A program made the position numbers and the translations under genes. Below are positions 23,211-23,457 of a stretch of 64,000 bases of DNA, piece after piece (positions within the stretch are counted from its first letter, which is position 1; every line of letters begins with the position of its first letter). This DNA comes from a virus. Taxonomy: Duplodnaviria > Heunggongvirae > Uroviricota > Caudoviricetes. Location of the stretch: the IMG/VR virus record IMGVR_UViG_3300027608_000020; one strand, given 5' to 3'. The notes beneath the pieces are model-generated. The model saw only the letters and a program-made list of their open reading frames with translations. It was not told the DNA's origin and made no database searches.

Positions 23211-23327
23211 ACTGTAAGTAGTAACACTAAGTCAAAACAATGATTTTCACTATATGATTTAGACTATTTTTACTGTATCATAAGGATACATACTACTGTA
23301 GTATGCTAACTTAAAAGGAGAATTATT

Positions 23328-23402
23328 ATGAAATGGACAACACCACAAGCAAGCGACATGCGTTTCGGTTTTGAAATCACAATGTATATTGCTAACCGTT
23401 AA
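23328..23402 (+). CDS. pqqA: PqqA-like peptide (24 aa; PQQ precursor peptide family)
   Basis: AAAGGAG RBS 7 nt upstream; [24 protein letters not shown] vs Pseudomonas PqqA [23 protein letters not shown] (about 15/23 identical, E-x-T-x-Y core conserved); terminator right after. Confidence 0.6.
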   Translation: [24 protein letters not shown]

Positions 23403-23414
23403 TCATACACACAG

Positions 23415-23441
23415 AAAAAAAAGGCCTACGGGCCTTTTTTA
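23415..23441 (+). terminator. rho-independent terminator (aaggcc-tacg-ggcctt plus T6)
   Basis: A-run / hairpin / T-run. Confidence 0.65.
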
Positions 23442-23457
23442 TTTGGCTATTATATCT

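Follow-up and report, generated by a model that had tools for sequence, protein, structure and literature searches.

The synthesis of pyrroloquinoline quinone (PQQ) starts from a small peptide, PqqA: PqqD binds it, PqqE cross-links its glutamate to its tyrosine, and trimming and oxidation by PqqB and PqqC follow, with one PqqA peptide consumed per PQQ molecule. What might a phage gain from encoding this precursor and none of the enzymes? The question is raised by a 64 kb stretch of phage DNA, referred to here at its full length as the window, in which an earlier reading made without database searches (the sequence-only reading) had noticed a PqqA-like gene of 24 codons starting at ATG 23328 behind an AAAGGAG. 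All of these elements are present: the plus-strand coding sequence runs from 23328 to 23402, ends with TAA at 23400–23402 and comprises 24 codons and a stop. The peptide scores 40.4 bits against the Pfam PqqA model PF08042 (cutoff 21.1; E 2.7e-10) and 38.1 bits against the NCBIfam PqqA equivalog TIGR02107 (cutoff 20), about twice the curated cutoff in both cases, so that the HMM check asked for in that reading gave a significant result. The family score is far beyond chance when the many small ORFs of 64 kb are allowed for. At 24 residues the peptide lies within the PqqA length range (∼20–30 residues) and has the Glu-x-x-x-Tyr pair as Glu16 and Tyr20; the two cross-link residues are kept, as had been claimed, and bear the same residue numbers as those described for the PqqE cross-link in the Methylorubrum system. 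The claimed identity of ∼65% to a comparator PqqA agrees with a hand count of 14 out of 22 aligned residues (64%), the comparator being the example peptide given in that reading. We regard the identity of the gene as pqqA, and its functionality as judged at the sequence level, as near certain. A second viral locus (L104) encodes an identical peptide.

The DNA around the gene is that of a phage. The window has a GC content of 39%, and nearly all ORFs of at least 100 aa lie on one strand. There are 37 tRNA genes (4016–19746 and 29719–29792), covering most amino acids, and a tmRNA gene at 19333–19719, with the tag ANDEQFALAA, which matches the betaproteobacterial and permuted tmRNA models and scores 118 bits against the Betaproteobacteria-specific Rfam model (gathering score 84). 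Phage genes include a gp44-type clamp loader, tail-fibre domains and a 1943-aa protein with baseplate-wedge and virion-structural domains. The closest cultured relatives of the clamp loader belong to the group of the 286-kb Pseudomonas jumbo phage PA5oct (54% aa identity), followed by phages of 300–490 kb, while a megablast search of window positions 20–27 kb against deposited phages gave no match. As judged from this gene content, the window is part of a jumbo T4-core myovirus. The setting of pqqA is that required of an auxiliary metabolic gene (AMG), inside a bona fide phage genome, with phage hallmark genes and tRNAs on both sides and the same arrangement in six independent assemblies. The region has been assembled independently in many metagenomes; of six copies compared, five agree fully over the intergenic segment that contains pqqA, and one has 99.2% identity. 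The genes called in the six assemblies leave the 380-nt gap that holds pqqA empty, in keeping with the remark in the sequence-only reading that the ORF is too short for standard gene callers.

Within this genome, pqqA has host-like cell-envelope genes as neighbours, in a block (20561–23929) that consists of an LpxH-like metallophosphoesterase (20561–21445), a GT4 glycosyltransferase (21467–22483), an OMP beta-barrel with a C-terminal Phe and a signal-peptide-like N-terminus (22576–23133) and, on the far side of pqqA, an SGNH/GDSL-like hydrolase (23516–23929).

The gene was said to stand alone, and it does so throughout the window. A tblastn search with 257 bacterial PqqB–E probes found no match to pqqB, pqqC, pqqD or pqqE at E≤1e-3 in these 64 kb of a genome that is probably larger than 250 kb. 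Nor did the probes match, at the same threshold, any of 120 IMG/VR pqqA loci among the matches listed, or the locus of phage Melnitz, while as a positive control they matched other bacterial loci at E values of 1e-25 to 1e-156. The probes were taken from bacterial loci recruited by a PqqA pattern, and their identity was confirmed on one set (L123), whose PqqB, C, D and E score 396, 343.5, 108 and 517 bits, respectively, against the four NCBIfam equivalogs. Likewise, pqqB–E are absent from the ∼2 Mb of DNA that flanks 240 viral pqqA copies among the matches listed. The window pqqA thus does not form part of a canonical pqqABCDE operon; because orphan copies of pqqA are normal, the missing operon does not decide membership of the PqqA family. 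A PqqC profile scan of IMG/VR, which used two exact motifs that could miss divergent homologues, returned two loci only, both marginal, one on a MAG fragment of a giant virus and the other on a contig of 3.4 kb. Viral contigs would thus appear to carry the PQQ precursor and almost never the PqqC enzyme.

A phage enzyme might nevertheless act on the peptide. The sequence-only reading had suggested that PqqA could be the substrate of a radical SAM enzyme of the phage, which would convert it to PQQ or to some other modified peptide, and a radical SAM ORF is indeed present on the plus strand at 7648–8736. This ORF matches only the generic Radical_SAM and Fer4_12 families, and lies among tRNA genes 15 kb from pqqA. 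It scores 15.6 bits against the PqqE model TIGR02109 (cutoff 381) and so is not assigned to PqqE; its best match, to viperin-like proteins, is weak (33.6 bits; cutoff 180), and neither SPASM nor PqqD-like peptide-recognition (RRE) families are among its matches. No homologue of it was found in the flanks of the 120 IMG/VR pqqA loci among the matches listed. Closer linkage is seen once, on an unrelated contig (L025, IMGVR_UViG_3300046779_001412, 136 kb), where an ORF at 3051–4073, 262 nt 3′ of a viral pqqA, encodes a radical SAM protein of 340 aa that has the motif CNARCPMC and is rich in Cys at its C-terminus. That protein is not PqqE-like, its best family being tungsten-cofactor maturase-like and weak (44.6 bits against a cutoff of 380), and it is unique to its locus among the same 120. 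With linkage to pqqA repeatedly absent, we consider a phage radical SAM partner extremely improbable and set this suggestion aside. The listed TTG start of the window ORF overlaps a tRNA-Leu gene (7670–7746), and the true start is probably an internal Met near 7783–7804.

If the enzymes are those of the host, the peptide itself may indicate which host. By visual comparison, 22 of its 24 residues agree with the best operon-encoded PqqA of freshwater Burkholderiales, and the last 14 are the same as in operon-encoded PqqA of freshwater Burkholderiales and Rhodocyclaceae, among them Limnobacter, Rhodoferax, Polaromonas, Limnohabitans, Hydrogenophaga and Thauera. The window peptide is of the Asp subtype, while phage isolates from OM43 and LD28 have the Glu subtype (...TEMRFGFEVTMYVMNK), and the isolate peptides share only 14–15 of 22 residues with it. 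Together with the betaproteobacterial type of tmRNA, the Asp-subtype match suggests that the host is a freshwater betaproteobacterium, though it need not be an obligate methylotroph. The host is probably a betaproteobacterium, and may belong to the Methylophilaceae, a family whose pqqA genes lay outside our bacterial comparison set. Since the host need not be a methylotroph, the PQQ enzyme concerned could be a methanol, alcohol or glucose dehydrogenase.

The bacterial pqqABCDE operons of Limnobacter, Rhodoferax, Polaromonas and Thauera encode PqqA peptides of the same family and length as the phage peptide, with the same Glu-x3-Tyr motif. They differ in that pqqB, C, D and E follow within ∼100 nt downstream, whereas the phage copy is alone, on phage DNA of 39% GC. 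Limnobacter genomes (L163, L181, L203, L235 and L236) have, besides the operon copy, a second, orphan pqqA with no pqqB downstream.

The phage copy also differs from the operon copies in what precedes it. Alignment of the leaders of viral loci revealed a conserved block, TTAATGATTTTCACTAT, which corresponds to window positions 23239–23254 (plus strand; AATGATTTTCACTATA), lies directly 5′ of the −35 element and could be an UP-like or activator site. The block, with up to three mismatches, precedes 93 of 241 viral pqqA copies among the matches listed as against 2 of 117 bacterial copies, and it occurs once in the 64-kb window. It therefore seems to belong to the viral pqqA cassette and not to be a general phage promoter element. 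A role for the block and the inverted repeat that follows as general promoter motifs of the window phage had been considered and was rejected, because each occurs only once in the window and other matches are at chance level.

A putative sigma-70-type promoter follows (23254–23281, plus strand), with ATGATT as −35 (23254–23259), a 16-nt spacer and TATCAT as −10 (23276–23281). Its assignment comes from the alignment: in homologous viral loci, TTGACA and TATAAT stand at matching distances from the block, with the −35 right after it and spacers of 16–18 nt. TTGACA is the −35 in several of these loci, whereas that of the window is weak, with three of six matches, and the window promoter falls below the threshold of a consensus scanner. 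The Shine–Dalgarno sequence AAAGGAG (23314–23320) lies 7 nt 5′ of the ATG and is unpaired in the predicted fold. Downstream, at 23415–23444, the rho-independent terminator described in the sequence-only reading takes the form of a bidirectional-type hairpin (A8-GGCC-uacg-GGCC-U6), the GGCC/GGCC stem having a run of A on one side and a run of T on the other. In the consensus scan it appears solely on the minus strand, as fits a bidirectional hairpin, and the plus-strand RNA fold contains the same hairpin followed by a U-rich stretch. A promoter-like site, TTGACA-17-TATACT (23459–23487; consensus scanner), serves the gene downstream of pqqA, and a weak A6-GATC-ttcg-GATC-T10 hairpin, read by eye from the sequence, lies upstream of pqqA after the OMP gene. 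With a hairpin upstream, a terminator of its own and a separate promoter-like site downstream, the window pqqA is, by these predictions, an insulated unit. Terminator-like hairpins are found 3′ of 104 of 244 viral copies among the matches listed, and of about half of the bacterial copies; Shine–Dalgarno sites are equally common in viral and bacterial pqqA.

The predicted transcript begins with a 7-bp stem-loop (23289–23305; CAUACUA/UAGUAUG, loop CUG; from the RNA fold of 23288–23446). A hairpin of at least 5 bp just after the −10 recurs in 55 of 62 unique block-bearing viral loci among the matches listed, with a median z of −2.7 (p = 0.002 as compared with a control region) and 43 different stem sequences. 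That structure and position are kept while the sequence varies is more readily explained by an RNA 5′ stem-loop than by a protein operator. The hairpin belongs to the block-bearing type of cassette and is not universal: the idea that it is common to all viral leaders was rejected, the median z over all leaders being −1.4 (p = 0.2 against the control). A search of Rfam gave no family that matches the pqqA leader. Hairpins at the 5′ end stabilize mRNA, as in the ompA 5′ UTR, and the pqqA hairpin may by analogy do the same. Many viral copies, then, share what is by prediction a phage-specific cassette of upstream block, promoter, 5′ hairpin, Shine–Dalgarno sequence, ORF and terminator.

So much structure invites the suspicion that the RNA, and not the peptide, is the product, with the ORF incidental to a small regulatory RNA. 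The predicted transcript of ∼155 nt is strongly structured (MFE −37.2 kcal/mol, z = −3.7), and the structure of the 5′ hairpin is conserved across lineages. Yet a strong Shine–Dalgarno core accompanies 231 of 244 viral copies among the matches listed, every variant tested matches the protein HMM, and the copies show many synonymous differences but keep one and the same amino-acid core, all of which conflicts with an incidental ORF and makes a regulatory RNA highly improbable.

The same ORF is widespread. Two non-overlapping degenerate DNA patterns searched against IMG/VR each matched at least 120 contigs, at least 240 together; the 240 matches listed are all intact ORFs of 23–25 codons, on contigs of 30–59% GC, with only three above 50%. 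All viral variants tested pass the PqqA equivalog model, at 34–47.5 bits. Several of the contigs are syntenic with the window and keep pqqA beside the LpxH-like esterase and GT4 genes at 75–85% nucleotide identity, so that the comparison with related phages and viral metagenomes proposed in the sequence-only reading speaks for conservation. Clustering of the flanks into independent contexts gave one giant component of 212 loci, of which phage mosaicism is the probable cause. Among 50 697 deposited phage records, tblastn of the peptide found nine records of Methylophilales or Methylophilaceae phages (four of Melnitz, and Venkman, MEP301, MEP401, MEP402 and P19250A) and one uncultured virus. The cultured phages that bear pqqA span Kyanoviridae, Zobellviridae and unclassified Caudoviricetes with genomes of 35–44 kb. 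The five records that we examined all lack an annotation for the micro-ORF, and the CDS annotated there in Melnitz is on the wrong strand. Since gene callers miss the micro-ORF, pqqA is far commoner in phages than annotation shows. A further record, ‘Acinetobacter phage MD-2021a’ (L252, CAKLQF020000010.1), to which two of the tblastn hits belong, was excluded as a viral pqqA because it is a mislabelled bacterial contig with ppk and a full pqqABCDE; it could mislead surveys of AMGs.

Conservation has to be read with the search in mind. The patterns force W, P, D/E, R, G, E, [IV], T and Y, and conservation at these positions is circular because the patterns themselves require those residues; the argument for selection draws on the remaining positions. 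Over 101 unique viral pqqA sequences among the matches listed, pN/pS is 0.26. At Phe13, Phe15 and Met19, where the patterns demand only a hydrophobic NTN codon, pN is 0.02–0.10 and pS about 0.9–1.2. Viral PqqA is under purifying selection at the level of the peptide.

These figures bear on two further explanations. The first is that the gene is a neutral passenger, a recently captured fragment of host DNA with no role in infection, for which the host-like envelope neighbours (LpxH-like esterase, GT4 glycosyltransferase, OMP and SGNH hydrolase) could be taken to speak. A passenger of this kind is hard to reconcile with retention of the gene in cultured phages of more than one family and on no fewer than 240 viral contigs, with purifying selection on pqqA, or with a phage-specific leader that bacterial pqqA genes lack. 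The second is that the peptide is a decoy or inhibitor, which would occupy host PqqD or PqqE unproductively and so throttle PQQ synthesis or sequester the chaperone. The viral peptides vary most in the N-terminal leader, at the positions that would contact PqqD, and no enzyme genes accompany them, both of which a decoy would accommodate. Loss of the Glu or the Tyr would, however, be expected of a decoy, and both are kept; the core, RFGFE[IV]TMY, is identical to that of operon-encoded bacterial PqqA; and shutting down energy metabolism would be an unusual strategy for a lytic phage. We judge the passenger and the decoy to be about equally, and very, improbable.

Each of the four alternatives conflicts with at least one observation, and even together they are unlikely. 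We consider it quite probable, on the sequence evidence, that the window carries a functional, independently transcribed pqqA that serves as an AMG, resupplying the consumed precursor during infection to host PqqBCDE, whose presence is assumed. The phage would supply only the 24-residue precursor and no enzymes. The infected cell would express the peptide from the compact cassette of promoter, 5′ hairpin, strong Shine–Dalgarno sequence, ORF and terminator. Host proteins would take over from there: the peptide would be bound by the chaperone PqqD, PqqE would introduce the Glu16–Tyr20 cross-link, and PqqB and PqqC, together with a protease, would complete the conversion to PQQ. Since one PqqA is used per PQQ, extra precursor would sustain or raise the supply of the cofactor, which would feed periplasmic PQQ-dependent dehydrogenases (methanol, alcohol or glucose) and thereby provide energy while host transcription declines. 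With precursor continuing to flow into long-lived host enzymes, PQQ-dependent respiration could be sustained for phage production. We infer from these considerations that the gene would be expressed during infection, that its product would be processed by host enzymes and that the phage would gain in fitness.

There are bacterial grounds for thinking that precursor dosage matters. In a production strain, PQQ output and the expression of individual pqqA copies go hand in hand. Methylophilaceae genomes have 3–12 copies of pqqA and a single pqqBCDEFG set (Beck et al. 2014, PMC4109929), which indicates that bacteria make use of precursor dosage themselves. The orphan copies in these bacteria, like the phage copy, are stand-alone and add precursor dosage to one enzyme set; they are chromosomal and host-regulated, whereas the phage copy has a phage-borne cassette.

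The reasoning has a counterpart in cyanophage psbA, with which a phage supplies only that part of a host energy system which is consumed rapidly or turns over fast, and draws the rest from the host. The likeness is one of logic only: psbA encodes a full-size membrane protein and its role is experimentally supported, whereas the product of phage pqqA is a 24-residue cofactor precursor with a proposed role.

A closer precedent is the Lake Baikal phage VP_266, a large T4-type phage of freshwater betaproteobacterial methylotrophs (a Methylophilaceae virus), which has PqqA; this was interpreted as an AMG for PQQ supply, the same precursor-supply role as is proposed here (Coutinho et al. 2020, PMC7678222). 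VP_266 also encodes a methanol dehydrogenase, whereas no ORF as long as such an enzyme (about 600 aa) occurs in the window; the window phage has affinities to jumbo phages of the PA5oct type. A 2026 survey lists virus-encoded pqqA, pqqD and pqqE among phosphate-solubilization genes. Full-text literature searches gave no report of viral pqqA besides these two, and the papers on Melnitz, Venkman and MEP301 make no mention of pqqA. Because a viral PqqA was published in 2020, phage pqqA is less novel than the sequence-only reading assumed. What appears to be new is the scale (pqqA on at least 240 viral contigs, and PqqC on hardly any), the unannotated pqqA in deposited methylophage isolates, and the phage-specific leader with its structural 5′ hairpin.

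More tentatively, as a reading that we take seriously and stop short of favouring, the pqqA mini-cassette may be a mobile ‘moron’ that has spread across unrelated families of phages infecting PQQ-dependent betaproteobacteria. It would then extend over podo- and sipho-like phages of 35–44 kb, T4-like phages of 141 kb and jumbo phages, always with an ORF of 23–25 codons. If so, pqqA would be the smallest known AMG and among the commonest in phages of methylotrophs and Burkholderiales, comparable to psbA and systematically invisible to gene callers. An AMG of 24 codons can, in any event, be widespread, as in at least 240 viral contigs and nine deposited records, and yet be missing from annotations. 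In abundant betaproteobacteria of fresh water and the sea, one-carbon oxidation is driven by methanol and alcohol dehydrogenases that depend on PQQ. Were phages to resupply the PQQ precursor as a matter of routine, viral infection would directly prop up the one-carbon oxidation step of the carbon cycle. As Melnitz, Venkman, the MEP phages and P19250A have been cultured along with their hosts, the hypothesis is open to direct laboratory test.

The window contains other genes of possible metabolic interest. A 411-aa ORF on the plus strand (749–1984) has a RuBisCO large-chain catalytic domain (PF00016, 122 bits), which is unusual in a jumbo phage, and no PHROG match. On the minus strand, a 209-aa ORF (17061–17690), among the very few plausible genes of that strand, matches the malonyl-CoA decarboxylase C-terminal family (PF05292, 76.8 bits). 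An APS-kinase-like P-loop protein is encoded at 12386–13180 and a dual-specificity phosphatase-like protein at 15632–16216; homologues of the latter gene (15.6–16.2 kb) and of the neighbouring phosphoesterase gene (16.4–17.1 kb) recur near pqqA in several viral contigs.
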